Below are positions 7,008-60,566 of a DNA stretch of 64,000 nucleotides, piece by piece. Where the stretch lies: assembly GCF_004010195.1 (NCBI RefSeq), contig NC_057753.1, positions 7,498,130 to 7,562,129 of the forward strand, written 5' to 3'. A model generated the notes under the pieces. It saw only the letters and a program-made list of their open reading frames with translations, was not told the origin of the DNA and ran no database searches. The stretch is from Chiloscyllium plagiosum (lineage: Eukaryota). The stretch's first letter is position 1. Each line of letters opens with the position of its first letter. A program made the translations under genes and the position numbers.

Positions 7008-7317
7008 CTTGCACTCCAACAATAGCCAGGATTGGATAATAAAAATATTTAATGATGTCAATTGCATATCTGATCTTCGCTGGTAAAGATAACCGATCAT
7101 AAAATGTTGAAAGATACCAAACATCCCCAGATAAACTTCTGTCGATATTTGTAAAATTCCAGTTTGTTTTTATCTGATCTGTTCTTGGATATATCCAACT
7201 TAGTGTTTCCAGATTCTGATCCATTGTTAGCACGTTCCAGTCTGTTCCAGAATCTGATCTTTTATAATTCTTCTGGAGTCGCTGATCCCTGTTAGTCGAG
7301 GTGACAGTCTTCCTCAT
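7008..7317 (-). CDS. GPR139-like GPCR gene A, exon 1 with extended N-terminus; exon 2 not seen in the window
   Basis: ATG-initiated 310-nt open exon ending IKYFYYPILAIVGVQ-G|GTAAGT (consensus donor, phase 1), at the same TM1 position as genes B and C. Confidence 0.8.
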
Positions 7318-7519
7318 ACTGTGCCAGAACAGCTTGAAACGAGTCCCTAGTTAATGGAAGAGGGAATTCCTCCTGTGACATATTTAGGATCCATGGAGAC
7401 AGATGTTGATCATGATCACTAAACAAAAAAGTTCAGTTAACCCCTTTCAAGACAGCACTTTTCATTTCACCATAAGTGGGCATTTTTATTCTGTCCAGAT
7501 GGAAATTATGGTGTCGGCG

Positions 7520-7730
7520 AGCATTGGTGCAACTCTTTTGGCTGGACGGTCGTTTTGTGGGGCAGTGTGATAACGAGAGCACGGGTGAAATTCCCGCATC
7601 GTGCAAAGGTTACCTTGTTGGATTCTGCTTCACAACCCTTCATGTGAAATGTGACAGCCCCACAGTGAAAGCAGCACCATTCGTGTCTCTGTAATGAGAA
7701 AGCCACCCTGTGGTCAGAGAAGACTATGTA
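7520..7730 (+). mobile_element. Old tRNA-derived SINE-like repeat
   Basis: B-box-like gggtgaaattcccgc and body ending tctctgtaatgagaaagccaccctgtggtc; recalled shark SINE pattern. Confidence 0.4.
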
Positions 7731-9787
7731 GTCTTGAGGTAATGAGAGTTGCTGAGAATATAATAATGGAAGCGGCTCAGGGACCAGCCCATAATCTTTC
7801 AGTCCTTATCATGTTTCCTCCTAGTAAGTGGGACTAGTGCCACAGAACTGACTGTTGAATAGGCTCCATCTTGTTTAGAAAAGGTGACACTGATAAAATC
7901 TGGGACGACAGACTATTGCATACAGTCACGAGAGAGGAAATTTCTACAGAGCAATATCCAGGTTAGCAATAATTGTTGCTCATTGACATTGTGTCGTATT
8001 GCTGGTATCTTTGAATGTTCTGTTAATACAGTATACCCGTTCTGACCACGAGAAATCAATGCGAGTGTTGAGACTGCTGCATCGGGTTTGGCAATCAGCC
8101 TCTCGAAGTTGTTACTGAATAACAGCAAGAGCCTATTCTACCCCTCGAATGCAGCACACAGAACAAGATAACATTAATCAGCATGTTGCCGCAATTCCAG
8201 ATGAAAACGAAGAGATCATTTACCAAAAGACAGAAGTTTTGTAGTAATAGTAGTTGAAAGGCAGTAACATTAAGAGATCATTCAGCCCCTCAATCACAAT
8301 ACAAGGAACAGCAAGAGCCATTCCAGACCGTTATACATGACTAGCGGGAGGACATTAAAGTTAACAGGAGCAGGAGTAAGCCAGTCAACTGCTCAAGACT
8401 GGTACACAGTAAAATGTGTAGCCATTCTGGATCCAGAATGTTGTTACCCAGCAGGAGGAAAGAAAAGGCGCATTGCCCTTCCGTTTGGTCAGGTGAAGAA
8501 GAGTCCTGCTCCACCTCTCAATTCGAACATGGCAGATCTGATTGTGACTTCTCCTCCTCCATCTTTGCAGAGATATCTTCTTTTGCAGACTCTGCTCCAT
8601 TTGTTCTCTATGTTTCCGATGCTGTGTCACTACCATCTCCATGCCTCATTGTTGTCGGGATGGGTGCATGGGTGGCTGCATAGCATGTGGTCTCCCAGAA
8701 TGTCAGCAGCTTCTCATAACTCGACCTGCAGGAAATCATCCTCAACATCTCCAGGTGTGACCTCAGTTGTTGCCATACCATCTGGATCAATTCGTTCTGA
8801 CCATACTCCGTTTCTTTGTAGCAGCCACTGTCTGTATTCAATATGTGACCATTCTCTTTCTGTGAATTTAAGCACTTCGCTTGCTCCAGAAGCAGGAATA
8901 GAGCTCAGTCATTTTGAAGCACTGTTAGTCATTAGACTGAAGCTATAAATTTGTGGCTGGACCATCCCGTAATGCAGAGACAGTTTTCATTCGTAACTTG
9001 GTATTTGGGATACGAACAATACCAGCAGCAATACTACTGGTTTAAGCTGTGACACTGCTAGACCAAGACGTTCTAGCTTTTGCTCAAAATGTGAAGTTCC
9101 AAAATGAAAAGACCAACCACAGAAAAAATGTATAAAATCGATTGAGTCAAATAAATGAACTAAATTTGGCATATGATTGCTACTGCAGTGGTCGTTTATA
9201 GAAGAGAAAACACAGCTCGTTCCAGAAAAGATAAGCTAGCATTACAATCAGAGGACGAGAGTTCATATCGTCAGCTATTGCATAGTCGGTGCAGGTATAA
9301 GCTGCCTTATCTCAATTCCTTTCAAAGTCCTTGTCTTTATATTGAACAGTGCGTTTTCCTACACAGCTTTGCAGAACTGGACTAGAACACATTTCATGTG
9401 GCTGCAAACTGAGTTGGAAAACTGTTTGGAAATGGAAAGAAACCGGTACATTGGATTATACTAATTTCCCTGGGGATTATTCAGAGATGCGACAAAAAAA
9501 AGCTGTAAACCGGTTCAAAGAACGCGAGGACGACCAAAGCATAGCTGTTGAGCAGTCGAGTGCCTGAAGTTAGAATTACAATCTGGGCAATACAATTAAG
9601 TTGGTAATGTGAACCAAGACAGAGAGAATTTCAATAACATTTCTCACAATAATTCGTTGTTTTTTCTATTCCACCAACTGCACATCATAGATTTAATACA
9701 AGGCTACATGACAAAAACAGCGATATGATGATCTCCGGTCTGGTTTACAGAAAAGTGGGGGCAACAACCCGTGCCCAAATAGTGAAG

Positions 9788-10440
9788 CAATTGTATTGAA
9801 TTTATTGTCACTTGTACAGACGCGTAGTGAAAAGCTTTGGCTTGCGAGCAATACAGGCAGATCACATAGTTGAATAGCATAGATAAGTAAATGATAGATA
9901 AACAGTGGCAAAACAAAAACGTTACAGACGAATGCTTAAGAGTTTGTGAGTCCATTCAGTATTCTAACAACAGTGGGGTGGAAGCTGTTTCAAAACCGGT
10001 TGGTTCGTGTGTTCAGGCTTCTGTACCTTCCCCTCGATGGCAGAGGTTGTAGAAAGCATTGCCAGGTGGGATGGATCTTTGAGAATGCTGGCAGACTTTC
10101 TGCAACAGTGAGCCTCGTAGATGGATTGTACAGATGGGTGGTTGGCCTTTGTGATTATCCAGGCTGAGTTCACCACTCTCTGCAACTGTCTCCGATATTG
10201 AATAGTACCACACTTGGTAATGATGCCACCAGATAAAATGGTCGCGATGGCGCACCTATAAAAGTTGGCAAGGGTATTCGCCATCATGCCAAATTTGCTC
10301 AGCTGCCTAAGGAAGAAGAGTCGTTGTTTGGGCTTTCAAATCATTGCGTCCACATGACGAGTCCAAGAAAGCCTGTTGTTGATGACAACTATACTTGTTA
10401 ATAGCACTCTCCACTTTTTCCACCTCTGTATTGTATAATT
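9788..10440 (-). mobile_element. Rex1/Babar-type LINE 3' fragment
   Basis: FYRCAIATILSGGIITKCG..LQRVVNSA..ILKDPSH C-terminal domain; aataaattcaat tail; same family as 57966-58700. Confidence 0.85.
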
Positions 10441-10469
10441 GGAGACAATGCATGATTGAACAGAAGGTG

Positions 10470-10860
10470 TTTGAAGAACAGTGACCGAATGCCCAGATGA
10501 AACCTTTGGAATACAAAGACGTTGCTGTTCCCCCAATTCTATATGGATATGAAACGTGGACTACCTATGTAGGCATCTCAAATCGCTGCAACAATACCAA
10601 TCCCTCTGAAAAGTCTGAGGGAGATCAGTTCACTAACAGGAGCATCTGGGTTGGGGCCAACATATCAAGGATCACATCCACCATAAATGAGCAGTAACTC
10701 CGATGGACCATTCCTCTCATTCGAAACCCCAGCTTACACCTCTAAAAACACAGCACGCATCCCTAGCTGAAGGATGGTCAGCGACCCGCTTGTGACCAAA
10801 AGAATAGCTTGGAAGGTAACGTCCAGATGAACCTCAAGAAATTCTAAATCAACACAAAAG
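10470..10860 (+). mobile_element. RTE-clade LINE fragment
   Basis: YKDVAVPPILYGYETWTTY...EQ*LRW, the RTE post-RT LLYGxETW / QLRW motif. Confidence 0.7.
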
Positions 10861-10885
10861 CTACAATACCATACCAACATCAACA

Positions 10886-11195
10886 TGACGGTACTGTGGC
10901 TCAGTGGTTAGCACTGCTGCTTCACAATGTCCGGACCAAGTTTCGACTCCTGCCTCGTGTGACTGCGCAGATTCTCCACGTGTCTGCATGGGTTTCCTCT
11001 GGGCGCTCTGGCTTCCTCCCACTGTCCAAAGATGTGCAGGTCTGGTGAATTGGCCATGCTAAATTGCTCATTGTATTTGATGCATTAGTCAGGGGTAAGT
11101 GTAACGAAATAGACTTGGTTGGGTTACTCTTTGGAGGGTCGGTGTCGACTTGTTGTGACAAATGGCGTGTTTCCACACTATAGGGAATTTAATCA
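10886..11195 (+). mobile_element. HE1-type V-SINE
   Basis: gtggctcagtggttagcactgctgc head, V core and tail. Confidence 0.9.
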
Positions 11196-12139
11196 ATGAA
11201 TGGCTACAAACGGGAATCATTGGAGAAGCATCGTCTAACAGAAAGCCAGACAGCAGTAGAACTCTCTGTGCTGTGCCACTACACAGAACGACTGTTGTGC
11301 GAGGAAAGACAGAGCATCAAGGTGGCCTTAAATCCCCCCACCCCACCCCCACCGCCCCAGTGGATCCCAGGTTTGGGTCTTCAGCCTTCTGAAGACACAC
11401 AACTTGGTGCTCTTATAGTGACTAATGATAGTCGACCTGAGTGATCACCGACGATGATAAATAGAAGTGTTGTTTCGAATTGGAGACTTATGCTGACGCA
11501 AAATTAACTACACAAAGTAGGACAGCACAGCCGCAGACTCGGTTGAGATTCTGTATTATCGGTCATTGTACATTGTTTTGCTCAAAACTGACCATGGTTC
11601 ATCGTCAGCCACTTAAGCACAACTCACTCGTATCAAGGCTCAGTGTGGTAAGTGAACATCAAATGTGGGAGCAGGGGGATTTACGTTTACACCGCTGTAG
11701 ATGTACAGAAGCTAAACCTGTTCCATCAGACCACTTAGCAAAGAAACCACGTTCTGATTTTGTGGCTAAAATATGGCATAAACGAAGGAAAGATCCTTCA
11801 GCATTCAAAATCTCATTCCCAACTTCCTTAGCTGATCTAGAATATACAGCCACAGCATACATTTCTGAAGATAGCTTTCAAGGCACGGTGACCAAAAAGA
11901 AAAACAAAATACAGTAAGAAGTTTCATTCTTTTAAATATTGATCAACAAAACGTGAACTGCACAACTTTTCGTAAACTCAGATGTTTGCTTTGGACAGTG
12001 ATCTTGGCCCTTGTTAGACGTAGAACAGCTTTCATGTTTTGGTGTCACGTGATTAACCCAGGTTGCAGGGACGAAAGTGCAAAGCTAAGCTGACCACGCA
12101 GAAGATGATAAGATATTCTTTTCAAGTGTTACCTTTTTT

Positions 12140-12255
12140 GCCAGTACCCAGAGAGATGGGTCATGTTGTTGGATCTTTGGTTTAAATCCCGTCACAGCAG
12201 GTGGTAGAATCTGAATTCATGAACGAAGCTAGGATTAACAGTCTGATTATGATAA
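12140..12255 (+). mobile_element. Old SINE head fragment (a related copy lies at about 56945-57065, minus)
   Basis: ggtttaaatccc B box followed by gcaggtggtagaatctgaattca; a reverse-complement match occurs near 57 kb. Confidence 0.5.
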
Positions 12256-12269
12256 TAGATATAGGGCAT

Positions 12270-12338
12270 CGCGGAAACTCCGTGAGTACAGTAATATGTT
12301 TTAGGGAAGGGACGTGCGATTCAAACTTGGGCGGGCCC
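12270..12338 (+). pseudogene. Possible decayed tRNA-Pro relic
   Basis: ttaggg..gggacgtgcgattcaaacttgggcgggccc resembles the tRNA-Pro 3' half (TTAGGG..GAGAGGTCCCGGGTTCAAATCCCGGACGAGCCC). Confidence 0.3.
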
Positions 12339-12542
12339 AAATATGATTCTAGACCTCGAGCAATGCAGTTACCTCGTCCCGTTCGGGTGTAGAAATAAAA
12401 TAAATTATTTGTTGACGACTGTCAATGATATAATTTTTGCAAAATGCGAAGTGCTATTCCAAGTTTATTCCCCTTCGAAAATCTTGGACTCTGTCCTTAT
12501 ATATAAAGACGCGGATATTATCAACAGTCAGAGTGTTTGGGG

Positions 12543-12618
12543 CCCTCGGTGTGATCTCAGCAGCTGGAATTGACGTTTCATCCCTAGAGAAATCTCAGTT
12601 TCATTCCGAAAGAAAGAA
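12543..12618 (+). pseudogene. Possible decayed tRNA-Glu(TTC) relic
   Basis: gtgatctcagcagctggaattgacgtttcatccc aligns loosely with GTGGTCTAGTGGCTAGGATTCGGCGCTTTCACCGC. Confidence 0.35.
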
Positions 12619-12762
12619 CCAGGATAGACAAATAAACACTGCTGTGTTAAAAGAAGGACAGGGAGGCTAATTGAGTTGAATCATGCGCAGGACAACACCG
12701 GCATGATTACTTGAAAGGTGATTATCATTGCTCTAAACTTTCTTTAGCGTATGCAATCAGAA

Positions 12763-12844
12763 TCGCCTCGTGGCTGAATGGTTAAATTGATAGATGAGAT
12801 TTCTTTGACTGTTAGCCGTGCAGATTTGAATCCAGCTAACAACG
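12763..12844 (+). pseudogene. tRNA-Ser pseudogene
   Basis: tcgtggctgaatggttaa..gataga..ccgtgcagatttgaatccagctaacaacg is colinear with vertebrate tRNA-Ser (TCGTGGCCGAGTGGTTAAGGCGATGGA..CCGCGCAGGTTCGAATCCTGCCGACTACG), ~82 nt with variable arm; stems broken. Confidence 0.6.
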
Positions 12845-13149
12845 TTTCTCATTATCCTTGAGTTTCAGTTTTTACTTTGTCGCAATTCTTACACCAATAT
12901 CCCTGTTTATAAACAGACATGAACCAAACTTGCTCAACTCAGTATGAGGAGAAATGAATGCTTAATATTCATTCAATGTGCTCGCTTCCAATCATGTGTC
13001 TTTGCCTTGCATCCACTTTCAAAAAAATATCTTTCTGCAAAATAAAAAAAAGACAGAAACATACTGACAAACGAAACAGGAGATGTGTTCAATATATTCG
13101 CTGCCACTCTCCAGAGAGGTTAATTGTTCATTCAGTCAATAACAGAAAT

Positions 13150-13275
13150 TATTGTTTCTGATGGAGGTCACCAGCTTCGAAACATGAACACTGCATTTTC
13201 CGCTCATAAGAAGCCAGACTTGCAAAATTCTGGCAGTATGTTTACTTTTGATTCTGATCTCCAACATTCGAATGG
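13150..13275 (+). mobile_element. Penelope-type terminal repeat fragment with degenerate hammerhead
   Basis: ctgatgg-aggtcaccagcttc-gaaacatg followed by the characteristic downstream body. Confidence 0.5.
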
Positions 13276-14319
13276 CGTTGTTTAATCTGTGCATTAAGAC
13301 AGAATAATAGTTACAAGTTATCTTGAAAGCTAACCACTGGGCCACCGTGCCGCCCACGATCATCAGCGGGAAAGCAGAGTTGGTCGAGTGGGATGACCAA
13401 ACCTGCAGGAAAGTGTGATATCGCCGCAGTAGACGTCAAAACAGTCCAGAGGCAGCTAGACTTGGGCAACATGCAAAAGAATTCAAGCAGGGTGGTCTGC
13501 GTTGAAATTATACTTGTGTGTACGTGAACTTACTCAGTGAGTGACCTTAAATATTCAGACTAGTATCCAGAAAATTCACCATAGATCGTTGTAAAACGGC
13601 AGATTAACCATGAAAGAAGCAACTGTGCAGCGTGAGCCAAGAAAAGGAGATAAACTAAAAGCATAGGAAGACGGAATGCCATCTGGCATGCTGGTTTGTA
13701 ACAGCAGTCGTAAATATTGTGCAATGATACGTCCATCAATTTAAATAATCGTAGTCAGAAATGAAAACGAATTAAAAGGATGATTTTAACCGTAGCTGGA
13801 GAGCAGTGCAGCTTCAACAAAATTACAAATAGATAAAAGGTTTTAGTTATGTTTTCTGAATTGTGGTGATATGCATTAATCAATTATTTCATCTCAGATG
13901 TTTCCATGATTCTTTGGTTAAATTAATTAAAATTAATTTAATTCCGACGGAGAAAGAACAAGAAGTACAATTCAAAACCGCTCAATGCCATTATACGTGA
14001 TTCGAGGAGGCAGAGCTCCAGAAGCAGTCAATAAAAGCTGAACCTACCTCCTGCTCTCTAATACAAGCACTAAAAGAGAAACAGAACGATTTTCGGGGTG
14101 AGGCTTTTAAGCTTTCCATAACTAATGGAGGTAAATGCAAATGAAGATTCATGTCAGTCTTGATTTCACGAAACCACAGAGAAGCTGTGAGGGAAGTATA
14201 GCAAGTGAATATGGATATACCTCTGGTTCTTGAACGTCCTGTATATTTTTACTCCGTCACCTCGATTAAGATCCTTCTTACAACTGGAAACGTTACACAA
14301 TGTTTTGGAAACAATAACA

Positions 14320-14410
14320 TAAATTTTGGAAAAGCCCAGCAGACCTGGCAGCATCTATGTTTAGAAATCAGAGTTGTCATCGTGGGTCCAGTGACCCTTC
14401 TTGAGAACCA
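14320..14410 (-). mobile_element. Penelope-type terminal repeat fragment
   Basis: Minus strand gttctcaagaagggtcactggaccc..aactctg..gatgctgccaggtctgctgggcttttcc. Confidence 0.55.
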
Positions 14411-15961
14411 GCTTCAGAACAGACTGTTGGCCTCAGTTCTCTGTCTACTTTTAAAAGATTAATCTCAAATATTGCTCTTAATCTTGAGGATCAGTCATGG
14501 ATACCGCCTGAGTTTGTGACGCAATGATAGTGTATTTGATTCCAAGTATTACAGCCGAATAATCAGATCAGAACATGACGTGTTCAATTGATGTGAACCT
14601 GAGAAAGCCAGCTCACAGCTCAAGTGCTTTCACTTTACATAAGGGAATAGCTTAAAGTGGAGAGCTGATTATCAATCCACTTATGTTCTTCAATAGTTAT
14701 ACTCATTTATCCTAATCCCTTTTGCCCGCAAAGTTACAATTACAATTTTAAATAAGAACTATGTTACATGAATGTGGCATACTCATTGTTTCCGTGTTTG
14801 CTTTTTTCCCCATTGTGAGCAATAAAACACAAAATGTGCATCGTTAAACCCATAGTTGTGTGCCTGGATATAGGTAAAGGAACTCAAACTTGGCATTAAC
14901 ATTATTCTCACCTTGTAATGCTCAAAGGATTATCACCGAACATTAGTTTTAAATTGTCAGGAGAGTCTAGCTCTTCCTAGTAAATCAGAACGACGGTGAC
15001 CAGGGTATGAAGGGGTTAATGCTTCTAGTTGTTCTCGGAATGACAACGGTCCACGATCATTTTTAATCAACCAACGTAAACGCTGAGACATTCACTGGTG
15101 AGAAATGGGAACAGTCTGATCTCACACACTGCAGACATATGTATGCCCCATGGATCCTATCTCCTTCATTAACTGGGGCAACCTCCTCTCAAGTATTTTC
15201 AGTGTTTCTTCTGTACCTAACGTTTTTTACTATCTGCAAATCGACATATTAGAAATGTACATATGCAGGGACGTGAATCTTTTGATAATCATAAGTAAGT
15301 TAATGTTGCCTAAAGCGTCAGAGAGACTGTTCCAGTTTTTCAAAGAAGTGAAAGGCGTCTTGACTGTTTGCGCTCAATGAGACAATTTTCCTCTCATCTA
15401 AGTCTCAAGAGATTGGGAAAGATTCTCAAAGTAGTTGACTTGAATTTCTCTCACTTTGCTTCCAATGCCTGCCAATCAATATTTTCCAAAATCCGATCAC
15501 ATTACGCCACCTTGTACTTTGGATTGGTAGAGTCGTTCTAGATATTTAAAGTTCTGAGTTTCAATCAAGAAGATGTACTGGATCTAATTAGAAAGAAAGA
15601 GGTGTTGAGGTGTGAGGTGAGAATTTTGGGTGGGGAGCTGTTTGTGAAGGCCAATAGACCAGGTGGGCAAAATAACGACTGTTCCCGCTGCCAAGGATCA
15701 GAAATCAGAAGACTGGAATTGAAAATCATTGAATGAATCATGTAATCTAAGAGGAACAAGGAAATATACTGCCCTTGCTATCCGTGGACTGATGTTGATA
15801 CTGTAATATAACATAAAAGAATGTGTTGGCAGAAACATATATACATTTCTTAATGAACTGTAGCGTCTTTTCCATCCCCATCACTTATTATCTACATCAA
15901 TGCGCCTCTAGGTGCATGTGGTGCAGCACTCCAGTGCAATTGTAGACTTGTCCTAATTACT

Positions 15962-21587: not shown

Positions 21588-22605
21588 CATTTTCACACTT
21601 TCCAGATTTGCTAACACCGTCTCCTTGTGAAACTCAATCCCATCTCGTCTAATAGCCTGTATCTCAGTATTCGCATCGACAATATTTTCTTTTTCCAGTG
21701 TGAATGCCGACGGAAAATATGCATTTAGTGCTTCCCCTATCTCCTCGGATTCCACGCAAAACTTCCCACTACTATCCTTGATTAACCTCCATCTTTCTCG
21801 AGTCATTCTTTTATTCTTATATATCGACAGAAAGCTTTAGAGTTTTCCTTGATACTATCTGTCAACAACTTCTCATGTCCCATCCTGGCTCTTCTTAGCT
21901 CTCTCTTTAGGTGTTTCCTGGCTAACATGTAAAGCTCACATGCCCTAACTGGACCTTCACATTTCATCCTAATATAAGCCTTGTTCCTTCTGTTGACGAG
22001 AGATTCAACGTTCTTAGTAAACCATTGATAGCTGGCCCAATCTCGTCCCTGCCTGACAGGTACATTATTATTAAGGACACTCAGTAGCTGTTCCTTGAAT
22101 AAGTTCCACATTTCAATTGTGCCCATTCCCTGCAGTTACCTTTCCCCATCCGATGCATCCCAAATCTTGCCTAATCGCATCATAATCGCCTTTCCTCCAG
22201 CAATAACACTTTCCCTGCGTTTTTTACCTATCCCTTTCCATCGCAAAAGTAAACATAACCGAATTGTGGTCACAATCACCAAAGTGTTTGCCTATCTCCA
22301 AATCTAACACCTGGCAAGTTTCATTAACCAGTACCAAATCCAATGTGGCCTCGCCCCTTGATGGCTTGTCTACATACTGTGTCTGCACACTTTGGATAAA
22401 AATTGACTCATCAAATATCCTCGAACTTGCTGACACCTCCTCCTTGTTAACTTCAATCCCATCTCGTCTAGTAGCCCCAGTATCTCAGTATCCTCCTCGA
22501 CAAATTTGTCTTTTTTCCAGTGTGAATACTGAAGATAAATATTGATTTAGCCCTTGGTATTTACAGTCAATATTTGGAAAGTTAAAGCCTTCATCACAAG
22601 AAGTA

Positions 22606-22905
22606 GCACAGTGGTTAGCACTGCTGCCTCACAGCGCCAGAGACCTGGGTTCAATTCCCACCTCAGGCGACTGACTGTGTGGAGTTTGCATGTTCTCCCC
22701 GTGTCAGCGTAGGTTTCCTCCGGGTGCTCCGGTTTCCTCCCACAGTCCAAAGATGTGCAGGTTAGGTGAATTGGCCATGCTAAATTGCCCTTGGTGTTAG
22801 GTAAGGGGTAAATGTAGGGGTATGGGTGGGTTGCGCTTCGGCGGGTCGGTGTGGACTTGTTGGGCCGAAGGGCCTGTTTTTACACTGTAATGTAATCTAA
22901 TCTAA
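22606..22905 (+). mobile_element. HE1-type V-SINE (5'-truncated, young)
   Basis: Near-consensus body with taatctaatcta tail. Confidence 0.93.
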
Positions 22906-22907
22906 AT

Positions 22908-23782: not shown

Positions 23783-23924
23783 GCCTACTGAGGTGTTATG
23801 GGCTGAGGTTAGAAAGAGGAAATGCGACGTCACCCTGTTGGGAGTGTTCTCTAGGCTTCCATATAGGTTCAGATGTGTCAAGGATAGAGAAGATAATTCT
23901 GTACAGGAGCAAGAGAAACAGGGT

Positions 23925-24550
23925 TAGATTAGATTACTTACACTGTGGAAACAGGCTCTTCGGCACAACAAGTCCACACCGAGCCGCCGAATCGGAACCC
24001 ACCCAGACACATTCCGCTACATTTACCTAACACTACAGGCAATTAAGCATGGCCAATTCACATAACCAGCACATTATTTGTGACTGTGGGAGGAAACCGG
24101 AGCACGCAGAAGAAACCCACGCAGACACGGGGAGAATGTGCAAACTCCACACAGAGGGTCGCCTGAGGGGGGAATTGAACCAGGGTCCCTGGCGCAGTGA
24201 GGCAGCAGTGCTAACCACTGTGCTACTTCTTGTGATGGAGGCTTTAACTTTCCAAATATTGATTGTAAATACCAAGGGCTAAATCAGTATTTATCTTCAG
24301 TATTCACACTGGAAAAAAGACAAATTTATCGAGGAGGATACTGAGATACTGGGGCTACTAGACGAGATGGGATTGAAGTTAACAAGGAGGAGGTGTCAGC
24401 AAGTTCGAGGATATTTGATGAGTCAATTTGTATCCAAAGTGTGCAGACACAGTATGTAGACAAGCCATCAAGGGTCGAGGCCACATTAGATTTGGTACTG
24501 GTTAATGAAACTTGCCAGGTGGCTAACCACTGTGCCACCGTGCCGCCCAC
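23925..24550 (-). mobile_element. HE1-type V-SINE whose head is split by a ~300-bp templated insertion
   Basis: Head 24550-24522 (gggcggcacggtggcacagtggttagc), insert 24521-24224, body 24223-23925. Confidence 0.88.
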
Positions 24551-36762: not shown

Positions 36763-37673
36763 TTATGTTTTTGATTTGAATACAGTTGTGAGTGAAATGA
36801 ATGGCTTTTGCACCATATTAATTAATTGCATTCTGAATTTTTTTTGAGTAATGGCATAAATAAAAGTGTTGGTGCAACAGCTCAAAAGCTGAAGCATATT
36901 TGCACTTTCTCGGAAAATAAATTTGGGATCACTGGCACCATTCAAGTCATAGTCATTTGTTATTTGTTCTAAGAGGAACTGTATAAAGTATGCCATCCAT
37001 AACAGGATAAAACTGCCTGATATAGAAAATATTAAAATTATGGACTTCTTCCGGCTCTCCAACTCTGGGTCATCCCGATTATATTCTGATTTCCGACCCA
37101 CAACTCTCCTTCGGGCTCTATTGGCCACCAAAATATGATGGACGGTCAAAGCATTGAATAGAATAATAAGAAAGAATGGAAGACATGGGGTTAAAATACG
37201 ATCTATCCAGTCGAAGACTCGCCACGTAACTGAAGTATAACGGATATCTTTTATCCTGCAGTACCACGGGATATTTTTAACTTTGTAAATAGGTTCATGT
37301 ATAAAATACCAAGGAATATTGATTAAACAGCCCAGAGTGCAAACCAATCCTATGACCAATGTTGCCGATTTCTCAGTGCAGTATGTTGTTTTCAGTTTCT
37401 GGTAACAAATAGCTATGAAACGGTCAAAGGTGAAAGCAACTGTTAACCAAACAGAGCAGTCTCTTGATGCATAAATTGATGCAGTGCTAATACTGCACAC
37501 TGGAGTAATGAACAGGAAACTACCCGGAATAAAAGTAGCAGGAATCCGATTTAACATCACAGCTGTGATAATAACCAAGAGATCTGTTACCGCCATTGAT
37601 ACAAGGTATCGAGTTATGCATTTTGAAAGACCACACCTTCCTTGCGACAGGATAACAATAGCCACCAGATTTA
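36763..37673 (-). CDS. GPR139-like class A orphan GPCR (gene B), exon 2 (TM1 end to C-terminus); full CDS join(41145..41076,37673..36763), 326 aa
   Basis: Open frame with 7 hydrophobic segments: NLVAIVILSQ (TM1), MAVTDLLV (TM2), TM3 Cys plus WLTVAFTFDRFIAIC, ECL2 PWYC, TM7 CTNTFIY, helix 8 KKFR. Acceptor cttttcttccttccaccttacAG at 37675-37674; phase 1 joins exon 1 as G|TA = Val. Confidence 0.95.
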
Positions 37674-40189
37674 CTGTAAGGTGGAAGGAAGAAAAGAGAT
37701 ATCAAGGATAGAACCACAGAGGAAGAAACATGTTGATTTAATTTCTACAAGCTTTAATGATTATGCATGGCTGCATTTCCAGATTACAGAAATGCATAGT
37801 TTGATTTATAATAGTTTCTGTGCTCTGAGATCAGCTTTGATAGTTGTAGTGATTGAAATAAATATAAATATCGAAGAGAAGGAGGTTAACAGGACACATC
37901 CGAGATAAATAAAAAGAAGAACAGATATAGAAAGAAAATCCATGAATATAAATTAGAAGTTCAAAAGGTATCAAACATTTAATTATCTAGATCAATGAAA
38001 TAAGTGAGTGAAAGTGAGTGAAATGCACATATTAAGGAAGAAAAGATAACTTCAGGAAATTGAAATTGTATACATTGAAACGTTTACATAAAACCTATTT
38101 CAATATGTTAGAACCATTTCCTATTGACAGATCCAGCAGTCACTCAGCATGACTCAGCACAAATGAAACGTATTTACAAAGTTCACGTAAGAATCGCCAC
38201 ATTGATTCAAATAGTAGCAGTACCTTTAGTCCCAGTGAATGTTAAATTATTCAAATTGTCACTCAATATTTAAAGCAATCCGCAATTACCTAACAATTGT
38301 GATGCACAACGGAAAATCAAAGATATGCGATGCAACATTTCCTTAATACTATAGATAATCTGAAAATGCAGCCCAAATTTTGAAGATACGTATGAAATCA
38401 TTTGCTGTCGGTGACTGGTGCACTACTATCTCTTATTGAAGAATAACAATATAAAATAGATACAGATATTTACATAAAATAGAGTATAGAGGCAGACACT
38501 CATGTCTCTGAATAGAAGCTATGGTGAACCATGATAAATTCAGTGGAAGCTAAACATAAAAATGGAATGTAAAATAGATTTTGAGTTGCATGACCGAAAC
38601 GTTGTGCCAGGTGAGGTGAAAAATAGAGATGTATCCTGACCATAATAGTCAGATTGAAGCATCATTCAAAGGTTACTCCACAAGTAATGTTTAAAGGGAA
38701 TAATTAGGACCATACAACATGCATTGTTACTTCTTTCAGCAAGGAATCGAGGATCAACAAATTTAGGAATAAATGCGACAGATAAACTAGCTGATGCTAG
38801 AGAAACCATACTGTGAAATGCATTCTGAATAAATTTTGTTATTCACTTCGTGCTTCACGCTTGTTGTAAGCACCTTGAGCTATAAGTTACCGGTATTGCA
38901 TTTATGCTTGCAACGTAAATCACTACATATATATGTTAGCGTCAATTTACTGAATGATTGAAAAAAAGGAATTAAAAAGTGAATTTCCCATTTTATCAGT
39001 TGCATAGTAAAGCTAATACAAGGGAAGGAATACTTATGTCGATTTGCCATAACGATGCCTACTAATTGGTGCCTTTTGATATGAATATCATTCTTGTAGT
39101 CTGTTGATTAATCGATTCTTCTTCATTTTCTCAACAGATGTTCAATGCTGGAAATGTTTCGAAATCAATCAACTCGTTTTCATGCTCATCACTTTGATGA
39201 TCAATTTGGTTTTAAAAAGAAGATGCACCGAAGCTCTGAGTCTTATCATTGTATTATATTATAGCACTTATTATAATCCTTCGAGTTCTGTTCGTGTTCA
39301 AAACGCAATTCATACAATCTGAAACATGGAACAGGAAGACTTTATTTGCTTGCTTCGTTTTTCAGTCAGAACATGGATGATTTCTCTTTTAAACGTATCC
39401 GTCAGTATACTCTCAATAATATGTCTTCTACCAAAAAGTGCAACTTAATGAATAAAACTTTCTATTACTCAAACTTAGATAACGTCAGTAAAAGAAAAAC
39501 AAAAGTTAAGTCGGATAAGAGAGGCAATCAGCTCGTTGTATAAGTAGCTGTCGATATATAGTTATTTTTTGAATCATCAACTTGAGAATTACGTCCAGAG
39601 ACCTTCACTTTCTGACACTTTAATAGCATATAGACCTATACGTAAAATATGTTAGCAGCATTATTTAGGCAGTAAATTCCACTGTGAAGAAAGATGCGTC
39701 TATTTCAGCAACTAGATGAACATTTGTTCGAACTGCTTGAGTCCATGCCATCCGCCTCTTCATTTTATGCAGTGCTCTTTTCTATACCCTTTTTTTAAAC
39801 TTAGTATACACCAATCAATTTATATGCAATCAATTTCCATTCTCGAAGTATTTTTGAGAAAGAATTATTAATTGAATTTTACAAGAAGAAGTGTTCGGTC
39901 ATTTCACGTGCACGTTGAGATACTTTTTGCGCACAGCAGAAAATTCAATGATTTAGTTATACCACCTCATACCATTAACACACTGGGATTTCATGATCTT
40001 CCAGAAACAGAACTGGGCTGGTCATTTACGTGCTGTCCCTTCAAGGTCAGTTCAAATGCTGGGGGAGAAAAGCAGAAGAACAATGCACTTCCTTACTCCA
40101 CAAACCCGAGTCACAATCTCCAAAGAGGGATGCAGGAGCGTGAGGGAACAATTCCACTTTTTTGATTCTGAAGACATCAAAACCATTCC

Positions 40190-40620
40190 AGAACTATGAA
40201 AGCATCAACTGAAAACGAATTAATTGTTTGACATCCTCACCTAACATCGGTAGAATCTGACATCTTTCCATCACTGAGACACAGTGGCATCTACAACATG
40301 CATTGTGAAATCTTATTTAGGTTCAATGTAGAACACCTGAGGAAGATCCGACTTTGAAGAAATCGAAGGCCATTAGCAGCATACCCTATGGGACACCGCC
40401 AGGTTCAACCTTCTTTCCAAACATTAAAACATTTGAACTCTACCGATATTCTTTCATTGATACTGCGCCAAAATACTATACCTCCCTGTCAAAGGTCATT
40501 TTCAGAGTACACAGAGAACATGCATAGTTTCAAGCAGCAATCTTATCATAGCCTTCGCAGAGCGATTGCGCTTGGATTTAAAATCTGATGTATCGAGCTA
40601 CACCCACATCTCAGGCATCA
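40190..40620 (+). mobile_element. Old CR1/L2-group LINE 3' fragment (same family as 46830-47260)
   Basis: Colinear with the reverse complement of the 46.8-47.2 kb segment. Confidence 0.5.
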
Positions 40621-40844
40621 TCGAAAGTTAAAATCGAAATCTAAGTTCATGCCTTCACTTTTATCAGCTTTTAAAAACTTTAGACACAAAGCAACTTTTT
40701 AAAAAGTCATAGACACCTGCATTTGATAACAGCTTGATTTGTTATTATTGAAGTCAAATCTATGCAGCACATCATCAAAATCTAAACAATGAAAATATGA
40801 CATCAGTTCTGATGAATCAACGCTTCCTTCACAGATGCGCGCAA

Positions 40845-40920
40845 ACACACACACACACACACATCTAATCTGTAAGATGAATTTTCATTTGCCGGTTTGT
40901 ACACACACACACACACACAC
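40845..40920. repeat. Two (CA)n microsatellites in the gene B intron
   Basis: Direct reading. Confidence 0.9.
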
Positions 40921-41075
40921 CTACCGGAGGTGTGGGGCCCGGAAAACCACGTATCTGATTTAAATAACATGTTGCAGACGCATTGCATAGATTCTATGTA
41001 TCTGCATTAGAATCCACATTGAGACAAAAGTTACGAACTAAAGAATTTATAATATAACTTATTGCAATGCTTCAC

Positions 41076-41145
41076 CTGGGACGGCAATAACTGCAAGTGC
41101 AGTGTAATATGTAGCATATACCAAGCCTTTTGGCGGTGCGTGCAT
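41076..41145 (-). CDS. GPR139-like GPCR gene B, exon 1 (MHAPPKGLVYATYYTALAVIAVP)
   Basis: 70-nt ATG exon ending CCAG|GTGAAG; same length, phase and YY..LA.I.VP motif as exon 1 of gene C; splices in frame to 37673. Confidence 0.88.
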
Positions 41146-41220: not shown

Positions 41221-41230
41221 CTTTTTATAT
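41221..41230 (-). promoter_or_regulatory. Putative TATA box of gene B
   Basis: Minus strand reads ATATAAAAAG about 80 nt upstream of the ATG at 41145. Confidence 0.5.
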
Positions 41231-43920: not shown

Positions 43921-44860
43921 TTCGGCAAGAAAATAGGGAAATAAACAGAAAAGCTAGAACGTTCACATTTCAGTCGATCAGAATATAAATGAGGAGGATA
44001 AGTAAATAAAGTTTAAAGATGAACGTTGCATTCCTTCTGTAATCAGCAATCTGTTTTCCTGATGAAGGGCTCCTGCCTGAAGCGTCGATTTTCCTGTTCC
44101 TCGGACGCTGCCTGCCCTGCTGTACTTTTCCAGCACCACATTAATCTTGACTCTGATCTCAAGCTATCTGCAGTCCTCACATTCGCCTATTCTGCCTATG
44201 CTGTCAGCTTTCCAACCGTAGTCTCACTTTTCATCTACATCCAGCTGCGAGATGTGTGACAGACTTACCACACTGTGTCCCAGCTTATCAGCTGCACTGA
44301 CTGTGCGACCACTGGGATCCCCTCTCAGATCGGGCCCACTGAGCGCTGACTATTCCACTCAGCCATGGCTGGGTGACTGCTGGCCCTTCATTCGGCAAGA
44401 AAATAGGGAAATAAACAGAAAAGCTAGAACGTTCACATTTCAGTCGTTCAAAATATAAATGAGGAGGATAAGTAAATAAAGTTTAAAGATGAACGTTGCA
44501 TTCCTTCTGTAATCAACAATCTGTTTTCCTGATGAAGGGCTCCTGCCTGAAGCGTCGATTTTCCTGTTCCTCTGACGCTGCCTGACCTGCTGTACTTTTC
44601 CAGCACCACTTTAATCTTGACTCTGATCTCAAGCTATCTGCAGTCCTCACATTCGCCTATTCTGCCTATGCTGTCAGCTTTCCAACCGTAGTCTCACTTT
44701 TCATCTACATCCAGCTGCGAGATGTGTGACAGACGTACCACACTGTGTCCCAGCTTATCAGCTGCACTGACTGTGCGACCACTGGGATCCCCTCTCAGAT
44801 CGGGCCCACTGAGCGCTGACTATTCCACTCAGCCATGGCTGGGTGACTGCTGGCCCTTCA
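43921..44860. repeat. Tandem duplication, 2 x 470 bp
   Basis: Units 43921-44390 and 44391-44860; 7 substitutions found by eye and no indels; each unit holds a Penelope-type end. Confidence 0.95.
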
Positions 44861-49640: not shown

Positions 49641-49669
49641 TAAAAAAAAACAAATAATCCCCATTTCCA

Positions 49670-49962
49670 GGTTTCCTGCAGTGTAGAAACAGGCCCTTCG
49701 GCCCAACCAGTCTACACCGACCTCCTGATGAGTAACCCACCCAGATCCATTTCCCTCTGACTAATGCACCTAGCACCATGGGCACTTCAGCATGGCCAAT
49801 TCACCTGGCCTGCGGGAGGAAACCAGAGCACATGGAAGAAACCCACGCAGGCACGGAGTGAATGTGCAAACTCCACACTGGCAGTCAACCGAGGCTGGAA
49901 TTGAACCTTGGTCCATGGTGCTGTAAGGCTGCAGTGCTAACCACTGAGCCACCATGCCGCCC
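49670..49962 (-). mobile_element. HE1-type V-SINE with internal deletion
   Basis: Full head gggcggcatggtggctcagtggttagc, V core and tail. Confidence 0.9.
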
Positions 49963-53745: not shown

Positions 53746-53781
<36 letters not shown>

Positions 53782-54372: not shown

Positions 54373-57300
54373 AATCTTAGACTAATTAATAGAAACGAAC
54401 TTCCTTTTGTAAATCCTGTGATTAGAACTGCAGGAAATGCAAGATGAGGAACAGAATATGCACACCCATTGGAGATAAGCAAGTCTGGGAATGTCCAAAG
54501 GTGTATAACACTTAACTTTGGAATGTGAATTAATGAGATGCATTGTAAGATCCCAAGGCTTGATGATTCCAATGTCTGATAAACATTATGAAATCATTCA
54601 GAATCTAGGCCTGTCCATATTGATGTCCATCATTGATCACATCTTCCAAAGGATTGGTGTGTGTAGATTAAGGGGGAAAGAACAATGAAAATCTTGCATG
54701 CAATTATTTTAACGTGAAATGCATACAAATGCTATACTCAACTGAGGAGATCAGAAAGTAATTGACCTCTTTTCCAACCTCATAAGGCTATTAACATGGC
54801 GACTGGGCCATACCGTAAGATCATATTCAGAGTGCTCTCTGGTCTCTCCCAGACTCTGTGGAAATGAGCTGGAATATAGATTGTTCGCACTTCTGAACAA
54901 AGAGCATGAGTCTTGTGTTTGACATATCTCCACAAAATAATCAGGCCAGTAAAGGATAATTGCTAAGGGTTAGTTGGACATCACAACGAGCAATTAAATT
55001 GAAGTGGAAAAATGGACAAACGTAGGCCAGCTGAAAAAAGAACGGATTGGTTTTGCTGAGGGAGCTGTGTAACGTTGATTGTGTGAGAGGTTTTTTTGTG
55101 TGTAGTTAATAGGAAGCCACTAAGACAATGCTTTAAACTCGTTTTCTGCGTATTGGAATTTTTGGAAAAGTGCAGAATGGTCACATCTGACTGGTCTTTG
55201 TGACCATGGTGCTTGGGCTTCAGGACCATTGCCATGGAAACTGTCATAGACCTTCAAGTGCTATCTGTCATCCAGGGGAATATGTCTAAAGCTGTTTAAG
55301 CTAATAGATTCGTTCATTGTTTTTCCAATCTTTGAAGAGGATAAAGCTAATAAATTTCCCTTACATTCATGCGAACGTGTCTTTTATTTCTTTTGTAAAC
55401 ATCTTGATCTGATCCCCATTTCACAGTTTCGACCTAACAATACGGTTGGCACAGCAAAGTAAGTCCGAGCAAAATGCTCAAGTTTGAAAATGAGAACAAA
55501 TAATAGAGTCACACTCAGAATAAAATAAAGGTAATAAGGATGAATTAAGAGTCACACGGTATCAAATCGAGCTGAACATGATGTATTTAGGTGTAATTCC
55601 AAAATTAACAGTTTTCTCATGGAGAAATAAGAGCCTTTGTCCATGTGATTACTTTTGAATATGGAAACTGAGTTGGATGACTTGTCCACCACATTGGGCA
55701 CAGACGAGGTGGATACATAACAGCCTTCCATCAAATTTGATAGTTCAAAAAAAAAGCAGAAAATCAAGGATGCGTGGCATGATCTTAGGTTATGGATGTT
55801 ACATGTCAATGTTGCATTTGAAGTCACAAATATATAGGAATAAAATGTGAAAATGCACAAAAAGACAGTTTTCAGACATATGCACGTACTTGTCAACCTA
55901 CGTAATACAGCCGTAAAATTATCCTGGTGTGCACATGTGTTCTTTTTCCTTTGTCTTTGCTAATGCCAGTCGAATCGTAATTTCCATGGAAATAGTGTAA
56001 TAATATGTGATCTTTGTATTTCCATCTCCTACTAGAAGTGTATACATTCATGATTTCTGCCACATGGTGAAATACTCAGCTGGAACGGGCAGCAGGTATT
56101 TTCAATTTTTATGCCATTCTTCCAAATGTTTAATTTCTTGAAATATTTGGAAATGTGGTATTTTCTGCGAATTCTGCTTTTTCTTTCAAAATTAACGTTG
56201 TGATACATAGATGACTAGCTGTAGCAATAACTATATTATCCAGCAGTCGGCTGTGTCAGTCAGATTGCTCACAAAATATATTTCCATGAAAATTTATAGA
56301 CTCAAGTTATGTCATTATTTTCTGCACAATTAACAACACTACTCAACAATCTACTTGAAAGCTGATGCGATGATGTAAGCATTGGATTCATAGCCGTTTT
56401 ATGAAACAACCATTTGCATTGGTGGAAAGTGTGATTTGAAGATTGGCAGACATTGTGACAGTGAAAACTTTACCAAAGGCAGATGAACTGGTATTGCAAT
56501 ATTCCATTGTAGTCAGTGATAAGAAAGGAAGAAAGAATGAGAGGCTGTGGAGTACATTGTCACTTTCAGAAGTATGTGTGGTCCACGGGTCTTTGCCATC
56601 AATAAGAACGTTTGGAAATTATATCATTATTATAACGCTGAAGACTGTAACAGCCAGTTTGACAAAAAAAGGAGATAGACTACACCATGCAATGAATCGA
56701 TACTTCTTATTTTGCGCTGTGGATCAGTATCAATATTTTGTCAAAAGACATTGACCTGGAGACGAACAAGAACCATTGATCGGGAATTGATATTTTATCT
56801 ATTTTTCCAAGAAGCAGTGAAAGTTACTGATCCAAATCTCGATTACAACTGATTGTTTGTAAAACTAAATGGACAAATCAAAAATACGTTTCTTTACTGA
56901 ATAGGCATGAGTGACTTATATTGAAAAGAAATGAAATGATAGTTAGAAAACCTTCAGTTTTAGATTTTATTGAATTCAAATCCTGGTATTTGCCATGATA
57001 GGGATTGAATCCTGACCAACAGAGCATAAGTAAATATTTTGCATTACTAGCTCTGTGACATCACAATTTCTCAGAAGTGCTTGCAGAGTGCCACTTTTTT
57101 TGTGTTCTCATCAAACGTTCACGTCACATAGCGGGAATGGAACTGTGCTCATGTGTGGTCTGGATTCGTATGCATGTACAGGTTCGGTTGTCAGCAAAGA
57201 CCATCTCTCAAACACCACATGCACATAACCATATATATTTAAATAGTTCCAATATTTCAAGTGGCATTTGTTCACGAGACATTAATGGAGTTAAGCAACT

Positions 57301-57397
57301 CACTGCTCAGTCGTGTGAGCATAATGCTACATATATGGAGCATAACAGGTTTCATAGCGTGGTCTAAGCGCCTGGCAGGTAAATGCTTAACTGGCTT

Positions 57398-57404
57398 TAT
57401 AAAA
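57398..57404 (+). promoter_or_regulatory. Putative TATA box of gene C
   Basis: TATAAAA about 155 nt upstream of the ATG at 57558. Confidence 0.4.
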
Positions 57405-57557
57405 GCCAAATGGATTTTGTCAAAGCATAAACATGAGAATATCAACGACTTTAAGGTCATTCATGTTGAAAAATATAATTATTTCCCTGGTGGCTGGCAT
57501 TAACGATAAAATGTTACGATATTCCCATGTATCACAGAAGCTCACATTTCTGGAGAA

Positions 57558-57627
57558 ATGCACGGAATACCAAAGGATTCTGCATCTGCCATTTACTATC
57601 CTATCCTCGCAGCGATTGGGGTTCCAG
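57558..57627 (+). CDS. GPR139-like GPCR gene C, exon 1 (MHGIPKDSASAIYYPILAAIGVP)
   Basis: 70-nt exon from gaaATG to CCAG|GTAAAG; YYPILAAIGVP TM1 motif; phase 1. Confidence 0.9.
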
Positions 57628-57965
57628 GTAAAGGACAGCAGTTAATTACTGTTTGATGAAATTACACTTGATTTGACTCACTGCCTCATCTATCAGCCCT
57701 GCTTACTTGATTTTAATATGTGAACTTAACTTTTCTAAAAAGAAAGCTAACACGCATTCCACTTTGAGCTGACATATTTCCCACTTTTAGTGTATCAGTT
57801 TTAGTTTTAAACAGATACATTTCCAATTTAAAGCATGTATTTCTTGTTAGGGTCAAGTTCTCTCTTTCAGCAGTATGACTTCACATCTGCGCTTTGTTTC
57901 GTCACGTGATGGTGCAATTAAAGTGTTTACATTTCTGGTACTACCTGTCTTCTGCAACACCAGTT

Positions 57966-58700
57966 ATTGAATTGAATTGAATTGAATTTATTGTCACGTG
58001 TACCGAGGCACAGTGAAAAGCTTTGTCTTGCGAGCAAGACAGGCTGATCACATCGTTAAATAGCATCGATAAGTAAATAACAGGTTTAAACCAAACACAG
58101 CTGCAGGAGAATGCTACGACTTTGTGAGTTAATTCAGGATTATAATAACAGTCGAGTAGAAAGTGTTTCGAAACCCTTTGATGCGTGTGATCAGGTTTTT
58201 TTACTTTCTCCCCGATGGTTGAGCTTGTAGAAAAGCATTGCCAGGATTGGATGGATCTTTGAGAATGCTAGTGGCCTTTCCTTGACAGTAGGCCTGGTAG
58301 GTGGATTGCATGCATGCGTAAGTTGGCTTTAGTGATTGCCAGAGCCGAGGACACCACTCTGTGTAACCGTCTCCAACCTTGAATGGTATAGTTGCTATAT
58401 TAGTTAGTGATACGTCCAGACAGAATGCTCTCAATGGTACACCTATAAAAGCTGGCAAGGATATTCGCCGTCAAGTCAAGTTTTCTCTGCTACCTGATTA
58501 AGAAGAGATGGTGTTGGACGTTTGTAACCAGTGCTTCCACATGAAAAGTCCAAGAAAGCTTGTTATTGATGACCACTTCCTGGAAGTTGACACTCTCCAC
58601 TCGTTCCACCTCTGTGTTAATGTGTAGGAGGGCATAAGTAACATCTCGCCGAAAGTCAATAATAAGTTCATTGGTTTTGCTGGCACTGAGAGCTAGGGCA
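57966..58700 (-). mobile_element. Rex1/Babar-type LINE 3' fragment in the gene C intron
   Basis: KTNELIIDFR..EVERVES..NKLSW; SILKDPSNPG..PSGR; (TTCAA)n tail at 57966-57988. Confidence 0.88.
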
Positions 58701-59652
58701 CCATTTTTTCCAGGCCTTCCACCTAAACTCATAATTTGTATTTGTTCTTCTTGATTGTTGCATACTTGTAATATTATTTATTGATTCATTGTCGATGTTA
58801 GTATGAATAATATACCACACTTTCTTGCATTGAAAATGGAGATCCTTTATGTTATTTATTTGTCAAGGGCTATTTTGCAAATCACCCTCCTATTTGAAAC
58901 GATCTAATCATAAGTATCCCTACATTTAATTCAGAGAATGAACTTATTTATTATGTTCAGTCACCATTCGTCACTAAATGAGGAAATTACGACCCCTCTT
59001 TCAGCCTTCACATTCTGCCACCTTCTATGATTTAGCACTGCACGAGGTACATTAAGTGGCTTCCCAGATATGGTTCGGGATTCATCTAGGATTCTTGACA
59101 ATCTTGACCCTCAAAAACAGAAAAGTCCAATGACCTGTTTGTCTCCATCTGTTTGAACACATTTTCGAAACTTATATCGTATAGATTAGTAATTTTACGT
59201 TTATGAGTCTGAGAAGGGCATTTTACCACCTTTGAAAAATGCAGTCGAATTTAAACTCAAGTCTTTTTTCTTGGTTCCTTTCAAAAAAAAAGGTCGCCAC
59301 ATTAATCATCCTTTATACATTTTATGTTGTTACCTGACATTGCCACGCCAATTTTCTACTTATGGCAATAAGCGTGAAGACAATCAGCGCAGAAAGCATG
59401 CAGGTCGCGAAAATAGCAGTATTCAAATCGGCATCGTAGTTTAAACTGGAAAACTACTGAAAATCTTTGAAAACTGATCGCGGTTTGAATACGTAGGTTA
59501 GTGATTTTGTCATATACCAATCATCAATTGTCACCAACTCCAACTCCCCGAGCCCCCAAACTCAGCAGCTCCAACATCCCCATTTCAAAACCTCACAGAC
59601 ATAAGACTCTCATTTTTGTATGCTTACCTTTTGTATTCTGTGTTTGTTACAG

Positions 59653-60566
59653 CTAACGTGGTGGCTATTGCCGTTCTGTCCCAAGGAAGATGCGGTCTCT
59701 CCAGATGTGTCACTCGGTATCTGGTATTCATGGCAGTATCGGATCTTCTAGTTATCTTTGCTGCCGTAATCTTAAACAGAATTGTTGGTATTTACTTTCC
59801 AGTCAGTTTCCTTTCAATTACACCGTTATGTAGCCTCCGAGCTGTTTTAACTATTGTAACGTTAGGCAATTCTGCCTGGCTAACGGTGGCTTTTACTTTT
59901 GATCGATTCATGGCTATTTGTTGCCAGAAGATGAAAGAAAAGTATTGCACAGAGAAGATGGCAGCGTATGTTATTGGAATGGTTTTTATAGTGAGCTGCT
60001 TTATATGTTCCTTCCTGTATTACATATATGAACCGCTGTACATAATTAACAATACCCCCTGGTTCTGCAGCATAAAATTAATGTTTTATACATCATCAGC
60101 TTGGGTTGCATATGACCTGATTCTTCGTATTTTAACGCCTTGTCTCTCGTTCACCCTGATTCTGCTTCTCAATGCTCGGACTGTCAGACACATTCTAACT
60201 GCCAGTAAAGCTCGCAGGAGACTACGGACCAAAAGCAATGTTGAGAATAAGAGTGATCCAGAAATAGAGAACCGCAGGAAGTCTATTGTTTTACTCTTTG
60301 CAATTTCAGGCAGCTTCATACTGTTATGGATTTGGGTTCTAATAACTTTCCTGTATGTTAGGATTGCGAGAGTCAGCTATTTCTCCGGAACCACTTCCAA
60401 TGAATCAAACTTTATTTTGGAAGAAATCGGAATCATGCTTCAGATTTTGAGTTCTTGTATCAACCCATTTATTTATGCTGGGACCCAGAGTAAATTCAGG
60501 GATGAGTTGAAGAATGCTGTAAAAAATACAAAGAACCTGATGATAAATCTCATAAAGCAATTATGA
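59653..60566 (+). CDS. GPR139-like class A orphan GPCR (gene C), exon 2; full CDS join(57558..57627,59653..60566), 327 aa
   Basis: Acceptor tgtgtttgttacAG at 59651-59652; G|CT = Ala gives ANVVAIAVLSQGRC. Motifs SDLLV, WLTVAFTFDRFMAIC, PWFC, NPFIY, SKFR; stop TGA at 60564-60566. Confidence 0.95.

Follow-up and report, generated by a model that had tools for sequence, protein, structure and literature searches.

A small gene cluster in the genome of the shark Chiloscyllium plagiosum raises the question of what kind of receptor it encodes and what such receptors might detect. The 64,000-nt stretch analyzed here (NC_057753.1:7,498,130-7,562,129), hereafter called the window, contains two intact genes for G-protein-coupled receptors (GPCRs), designated G2 and G3, together with exon 1 of a related gene, G1; all coordinates are positions in the window. 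The results almost certainly place these genes in a receptor family with a large, clustered expansion in cartilaginous fishes. A specifically chemosensory role, suggested by sequence comparison, is given a probability of about 45%.

Structure of the receptor genes

A six-frame scan of the window yielded two long reading frames encoding seven-transmembrane proteins, at 36766-37701 on the minus strand and 59505-60563 on the plus strand. They belong to G2 and G3, respectively, both of which are intact two-exon class A GPCR genes without internal stop codons; G2 (41145-36763, minus strand) encodes 326 amino acid residues, and G3 (57558-60566, plus strand) encodes 327. When the two proteins were searched against Pfam, 7tm_1 was the sole family at E values up to 0.001, with scores of 88.8 and 77.3 bits, respectively (cut-off, 30.5 bits). 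G2 and G3 are 54% identical over 315 residues. A seven-helix structure model with a mean predicted local distance difference test score (pLDDT) of 65.6 matched GPCR folds. Matches to designed-repeat PDB entries (dTor) were rejected as low-complexity artefacts.

The initial annotation had described two intact, divergently oriented paralogues with starts about 16.4 kb apart, and the start codons of G2 and G3 were indeed separated by 16,413 bp. It had also proposed a shared phase-1 intron in the first transmembrane helix (TM1). In both genes, the intron has GT..AG ends, is in phase 1, and interrupts the identical TM1 codon, and the phase-1 donor at this codon is common to all three genes. The exon-1 pattern [YF]Y..LA...V[PQ], followed by G/GT at the splice junction, occurred three times in the window and never in 100 base shuffles. 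TATAAA was found 43-161 bases 5′ of the ATG in three of three genes. Exon 1 and parts of exon 2 of G3 (59690-59925 and from 60470) matched contigs of a DNA-like sequencing run with no letter differences; this run carries the same species label and may be the source of the assembly itself.

The description of all three paralogues as two-exon genes applied to G2 and G3 and failed for G1, for which exon 1 alone (7224-7008) was recognized. Searches of positions 1-7007 in all six frames by tblastn and with the family hidden Markov model revealed no second exon, and therefore either the intron is longer than 7 kb or exon 1 is orphaned. As the start codon, ATG 7224 was favored over the in-frame ATG 7317, because the TATAAA box lies downstream of the latter. 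Exon 1 of G1 was matched by 4 of 28 candidates, all full-length shark 7tm_1 proteins with a long N-terminus (best E value, 5.6e-14; 56% identity), and G1 is accordingly a real family member. In this long-N subfamily (7008-7317, minus strand, for G1), the N-terminus is made of short repeated units bearing N-x-T sequons. In G2 and G3, about 12 residues precede TM1, and there is no N-terminal sequon.

Size and distribution of the family

With exon 2 of G3 as the query, 1985 of 5588 candidates matched at an E value of 0.001, a number that may include other GPCRs and is not a family count. Among the best 120 of these matches, 119 were named shark proteins, and one was unnamed. The horn shark Heterodontus francisci accounted for 81 of the 120 (clusters at 90% identity). 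Of these, 59 map to a single 59.5-Mb scaffold, and the remaining 22 are spread over four more; a typical length of 320-340 residues is seen in only 55 of the 81 models. Most family proteins bear the automatic RefSeq name "probable G-protein coupled receptor 139". In sequencing run X1, the summed contig depth was 97-14,602 on exon 2 of G3 compared with 5-21 in the unique flanks and intron, which points to many paralogues, though it is not a copy number.

A profile built from 18 members detected 136 representatives (50% level) at E values up to 1e-30. Thirty of the 150 profile matches listed were named, having been picked as divergent or basal rather than at random. Twenty-one were chondrichthyan, namely sharks of several orders, skates, a stingray, an electric ray, and two Callorhinchus proteins; the other nine came from a salamander, a coelacanth, a silverside, an anchovy, a caecilian, and amphioxus (two proteins), with two carrying no species. 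The two Callorhinchus proteins fall in separate branches, and therefore the radiation probably predates the split between chimaeras and elasmobranchs.

The birth part of the birth-and-death repertoire that had been proposed is thus matched by many clustered copies, with at least 81 clusters in Heterodontus rather than a few copies genome-wide. The proposed expanded elasmobranch family stands as far as large clusters in sharks and rays are concerned; its restriction to elasmobranchs does not, because chimaera proteins are included, and a sister gene is present in bony vertebrates.

Relation to GPR139 and to a bony-vertebrate sister gene

By both sequence and fold, the best PDB match was human GPR139, at 19-22% identity. 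Under the family profile, human GPR139 scored 65.3 bits, whereas the salamander, coelacanth, silverside, anchovy, and caecilian proteins scored 213.7, 197.4, 177.3, 125.7, and 116.3 bits, respectively, and the two amphioxus proteins 127.4 and 111.9 bits. The salamander protein is itself far from GPR139 (53 bits). These values support the earlier view that the window genes are not true GPR139 orthologues.

The salamander protein, used as a query, matched 25 of 1675 candidates, comprising 20 amphibian clusters, one sturgeon protein, and four chondrichthyan proteins, with identities of 66-100%, 46%, and 32-33%, respectively. The 20 amphibian clusters correspond to one per named species, and the amphibian/sturgeon gene is apparently conserved and single-copy. 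No amniote protein was among the 25 matches; because of the word filter, this counts as weak evidence. The gene occurs in all three amphibian orders, bears the RefSeq name GPR139 although it is distant from GPR139, and has a near-invariant pocket.

The main tree contained 36 rows, subsampled and with fragments left out, and was built with a mixture model and rooted on amphioxus. The 24 chondrichthyan rows lay on one side of a branch (support, 93/88) and joined five amphibian/sturgeon rows at 100/100, with two further vertebrate subgroups outside; trees of 89 and 43 rows gave the same chondrichthyan and amphibian/sturgeon grouping. G2 grouped with a Heptranchias protein to which it is 70% identical (99/97), G3 with Stegostoma and Heterodontus proteins (100/99), and the relatives of G1 formed the long-N clade (100/100). 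Since G1, G2, and G3 fall in three old subfamilies, the cluster represents an old mixed array and not a recent triplication. The family includes Callorhinchus and sits within a wider GPR139-related group with coelacanth, teleost, and amphioxus members.

Signaling core and ligand pocket

G2 and G3 carry N1.50, D2.50, C3.25, DRF, N7.49, Y7.53, and the cysteine of the second extracellular loop (ECL2). G2 has T7.50, G3 has S5.50, and both lack P6.50, which is lost in most shark copies. In the Heterodontus set, D2.50, DR, N5.58, and N7.49 were present in 81 of 81 rows, C3.25 in 79, and Y7.53 in 80. The ECL2 cysteine was invariant in a 78-row alignment.

The action of Trp and Phe on GPR139 requires F3x33, H5x43, W6x48, and N7x38, according to the accessible part of a published study (PMC5430874). 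With the register set by placing P5.50 eight residues before an invariant N, the residues at these four positions are Y/D/W/N in G2 and I/L/W/I in G3, with two and one of the four identical, respectively. The amphibian sister gene has F/Q/W/N, with F, W, and N conserved in 20 of 20 sequences together with a basic residue at 6.51.

Variability was compared at 25 pocket positions, which we take from generic class A numbering anchored on motifs. Among the 81 Heterodontus paralogues, the pocket entropy was 1.30, compared with 0.68 at the other 167 transmembrane positions and 0.80 at 41 non-pocket positions in the outer half (p=0.004). The 20 amphibian orthologues showed the opposite pattern, with 0.03 in the pocket and 0.44 at non-pocket positions (p=2e-5). 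Overall identity was similar in the two sets (75% and 77%, respectively). The contrast was strongest at a register shift of 0, shifts of one or two residues lowering the shark value and raising the amphibian value, and every one of 200 subsamples of 20 retained the shark pattern. This contrast between shark and amphibian pockets and the sister gene in bony vertebrates are added by the present account. The shark copies probably form a diversified detector repertoire; at the level of sequence, a receptor with one conserved pocket has become an array of many pockets, which may be tuned to different ligands.

Transcription of a family member

The analysis covered approximately 2% of the single-cell polyA run X5 (13.0 million records), in which about 13 reads from eight starts aligned to exon 2 of G3 (60036-60377), each with at least nine differences. 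The reads share the same differing letters and therefore come from one paralogue other than G3. Twelve listed differences touched 10 codons, of which three were silent and seven changed, with no stop codon. In the same 2% of the run, the depth was 0 on exon 1 and the 3′ flank of G3, and spliced joints were not seen. One family member is thus transcribed, in a library of unstated tissue.

Possible functions of the family

The three window genes are best explained as three subfamilies of a large chondrichthyan class A GPCR radiation descended from one jawed-vertebrate gene, a paralogue rather than an orthologue of GPR139, that survives in amphibians and sturgeon. The ancestral receptor may have bound one fixed amino-acid- or peptide-like ligand, because the amphibian gene keeps three of the four GPR139 Trp/Phe-site residues. 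Tandem duplication would then have yielded a set of G-protein-coupled detectors with different tuning. Their most likely targets are outside chemicals, such as amino-acid derivatives or peptides, detected in sensory or barrier cells of, for example, the nose, taste organs, skin, or gut.

Several points weigh against this chemosensory interpretation. The support of the chondrichthyan branch is just below the strict cut-off, and the trees were built without true GPR139 and GPR142. G3 has S at position 5.50, where 79 of 81 Heterodontus rows have P, and G1 has Q instead of the conserved P at the splice codon; some copies may therefore be decaying. Reads agreeing with G3 itself were not listed on its exons in the 2% of X5. 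The pocket positions were taken from generic class A numbering, and their entropy is not dN/dS. Pocket diversification also occurs in immune and itch receptor families such as FPR and MRGPR, and the pocket data therefore do not single out smell or taste. Finally, catshark olfactory neurons were all TRPC2/Go-positive, which was interpreted as a V2R system with no stated need for a further receptor family, in the available part of that report (PMC10116579).

The strongest alternative, although unlikely, is immune or barrier surveillance, in which leukocytes, mast-like cells, or epithelial cells would use the receptors to detect peptides from microbes or parasites, much as formyl-peptide and Mas-related receptors are used in mammals. 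The expansion and the pocket diversity also fit such a role, the nearest relatives are peptide-type receptors, and the paralogue reads came from a single-cell library whose tissue is not stated. MAS1 and its relatives are absent in cartilaginous fishes, as stated in the accessible part of the whale-shark paper (PMC8455134), which leaves this niche open. Against this role, immune expression data were not found, and the main text of a bamboo-shark immune-gene paper mentions neither GPCRs nor GPR139 (PMC7677710).

It is improbable that the copies, in the manner of GPR139 and GPR142, are receptors for endogenous peptides or metabolites in the brain, gut, or gonad that were duplicated to raise dosage or to divide roles among tissues. 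GPR139, the nearest solved structure and human receptor, responds to Trp/Phe (PMC5430874) and dynorphin (PMC12287315), in the parts of these papers available, and G2 keeps W6.48, N7.39, and an aromatic residue at 3.33. However, a conserved pocket, as in amphibians, would be expected if the ligand were a fixed self molecule, and the shark copies show the opposite; more than 80 copies per species also far exceeds the known endocrine receptor families.

Less probable still is that copy number has drifted, largely neutrally, in shark chromosomes rich in repeats. Most copies would then be passengers, and the pocket variation would reflect relaxed constraint, as might be suspected from the repeat fragments around the genes, the atypical lengths among the Heterodontus models, and the odd substitutions of G3 with no reads of its own listed. 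On the other hand, reading frames, splice sites, and TATA boxes are intact, and subfamilies were retained across shark orders, as the pairing of G2 with Heptranchias indicates. The core residues unchanged in all 81 Heterodontus rows also oppose drift, and relaxation alone should not raise pocket variability above that of adjoining non-pocket sites.

Plain orthology to GPR139 or GPR142, implied by the RefSeq name of most copies and the top PDB match, is very improbable given the 19-22% identity, the score of 65 bits under a profile that gave 112-214 bits to relatives other than GPR139 from bony vertebrates and amphioxus, the key residues identical at only one of four positions in G3 and two of four in G2, and the dozens of copies, three in the window and at least 81 clusters in Heterodontus.

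A broader form of the chemosensory interpretation, put forward tentatively, is that the genes represent a further vertebrate chemoreceptor family of at least 100 receptors, derived from one GPR139-related receptor for peptides or amino acids before the chimaera/shark split and expressed sparsely in shark sensory cells. If true, this repertoire would be larger than the set of olfactory receptors known from sharks, and the idea that cartilaginous fishes smell or taste with very few receptor genes would need revision. Whether sensory or immune, the family probably ranks with the largest receptor families that cartilaginous fishes have; one subfamily alone comprises at least 81 distinct horn-shark proteins, which automatic naming as "probable GPR139" has hidden. 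With its ancestral-type pocket, available in Xenopus, the conserved sister gene of amphibians makes the family testable and is a good deorphanization target.

Gene features and neighboring sequence

The features of the three genes are listed in Table 1. The self-repeated share of the window is 14%, which lends modest support to the initial description of the paralogues as repeat-embedded. An interspersed repeat of about 300 bp is present in approximately six copies (3159-3456, 4619-4933, 10896-11194, 49669-49962, and parts of 22308-22907 and 23924-24551); its size suggests a short interspersed nuclear element, and Rfam gave no matches in the window. A 640-bp repeat occurs twice, at 9789-10432 and in the G3 intron, and was covered at very high depth by DNA as well as RNA runs. 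One of its frames matched Pfam ALKBH8_N (E value, 2e-5), a signature of the end of long interspersed nuclear elements in fishes.

At 43921-44860, a 470-bp unit is duplicated head to tail with 98% identity, representing either a recent duplication or an assembly artefact. The region at 33800-35700 (plus strand), adjoining the 3′ end of G2, is A-rich and stop-interrupted; the 140-codon frame at its end (35217-35636) matched DUF7060 weakly, below the threshold (E value, 0.011). Read-through of three frames of this region gave no Pfam match, and the region resembles a mobile or viral element that has decayed.

Table 1. Positions of receptor gene features in the window
Feature	Position	Strand	Description
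G1 exon 1	7008..7224	-	72 codons: long N-terminus and first half of TM1; phase-1 GT donor; long-N subfamily
TATAAA box 5′ of G1	7261..7266	-	Putative function
G2 exon 2	36763..37673	-	Rest of TM1 to stop; 7tm_1, DRF, ECL2 Cys, N7.49/Y7.53
G2 intron	37674..41075	-	3402 bp, phase 1, GT..AG
G2 exon 1	41076..41145	-	70 bases, 23 codons + 1 base; very short N-terminus
TATAAA box 5′ of G2	41224..41229	-	Putative function
TATAAA box 5′ of G3	57398..57403	+	Putative function
G3 exon 1	57558..57627	+	70 bases, 23 codons + 1 base; DNA-like run contig 57300-57959, 0 differences
G3 intron	57628..59652	+	2025 bp, phase 1; contains 640-bp interspersed repeat (57975-58618)
G3 exon 2	59653..60566	+	Rest of TM1 to stop; 7tm_1, DRF, NPFIY

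Comparison with known receptor systems

Human GPR139 presumably also has two exons and an intron at a comparable place, a point for which no paper was found. The shark genes resemble GPR139 in the TM1 YY..L pattern and the asparagine at 5.58, and G2 also keeps W6.48 and N7.39. They differ in occurring as dozens of clustered copies instead of one, with a diversified pocket; most shark copies lack P6.50 and the basic residue at 6.51, and the third intracellular loop is longer. GPR139 and GPR142 are class A orphans activated by L-Trp/L-Phe, and GPR139 is also activated by dynorphin (PMC5430874, PMC12287315; parts available).

"GPR210" was described by Rinne et al. (2019) as an orphan near GPR139/GPR142 with three subtypes in coelacanth, gar, and teleosts, in the accessible part of that paper (PMC6504862). 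Our tree likewise has three non-GPR139 vertebrate subgroups, whose members include coelacanth, teleost, and amphibian proteins, and one of which is sister to the shark radiation. In contrast, the accessible text on GPR210 has no mention of cartilaginous fish and reports no expansion. GPR210 and the wider group found here may be the same, as compared by description with Ensembl IDs unmatched. No description of the shark expansion was found in the literature searched, subscription papers and the catshark expression supplement being outside its scope. GPR139 is absent from the main text of four shark genome papers (PMC11979771, PMC10620051, PMC7677710, and PMC8455134) and was not found in the searched parts of the supplements of PMC3964593 and PMC8455134, which gave one GPR142 orthogroup line only.

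Invertebrate sex-peptide/MIP, FMRFamide, and Srw-type receptors are feature-level neighbors in the ESM Atlas. Nematode srw chemoreceptors arose from this peptide-receptor stock, which provides a precedent for such a conversion. These invertebrate receptors are distant, however, with no Srw Pfam match on the window proteins, and the vertebrate expansion is separate. The available part of a review treats these invertebrate receptors as GPR139-related (PMC12208981).

Very few OR, TAAR, and V1R genes are present in the catshark, according to the accessible part of that study (PMC10116579), and the whale-shark paper, in its accessible part, refers to a "relative paucity" of GPCRs in cartilaginous fishes (PMC8455134). 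With the OR, TAAR, V1R/ORA, V2R/OlfC, T2R, rodent FPR-rs, and MRGPR families, the shark genes share compactness, clustering, lineage-specific expansion, and a variable pocket. They differ from these families in belonging to another GPCR lineage, with no match to 7tm_4, V1R, TAS2R, or 7tm_3 and with GPR139-like proteins as their nearest named relatives, and in having an intron in TM1.

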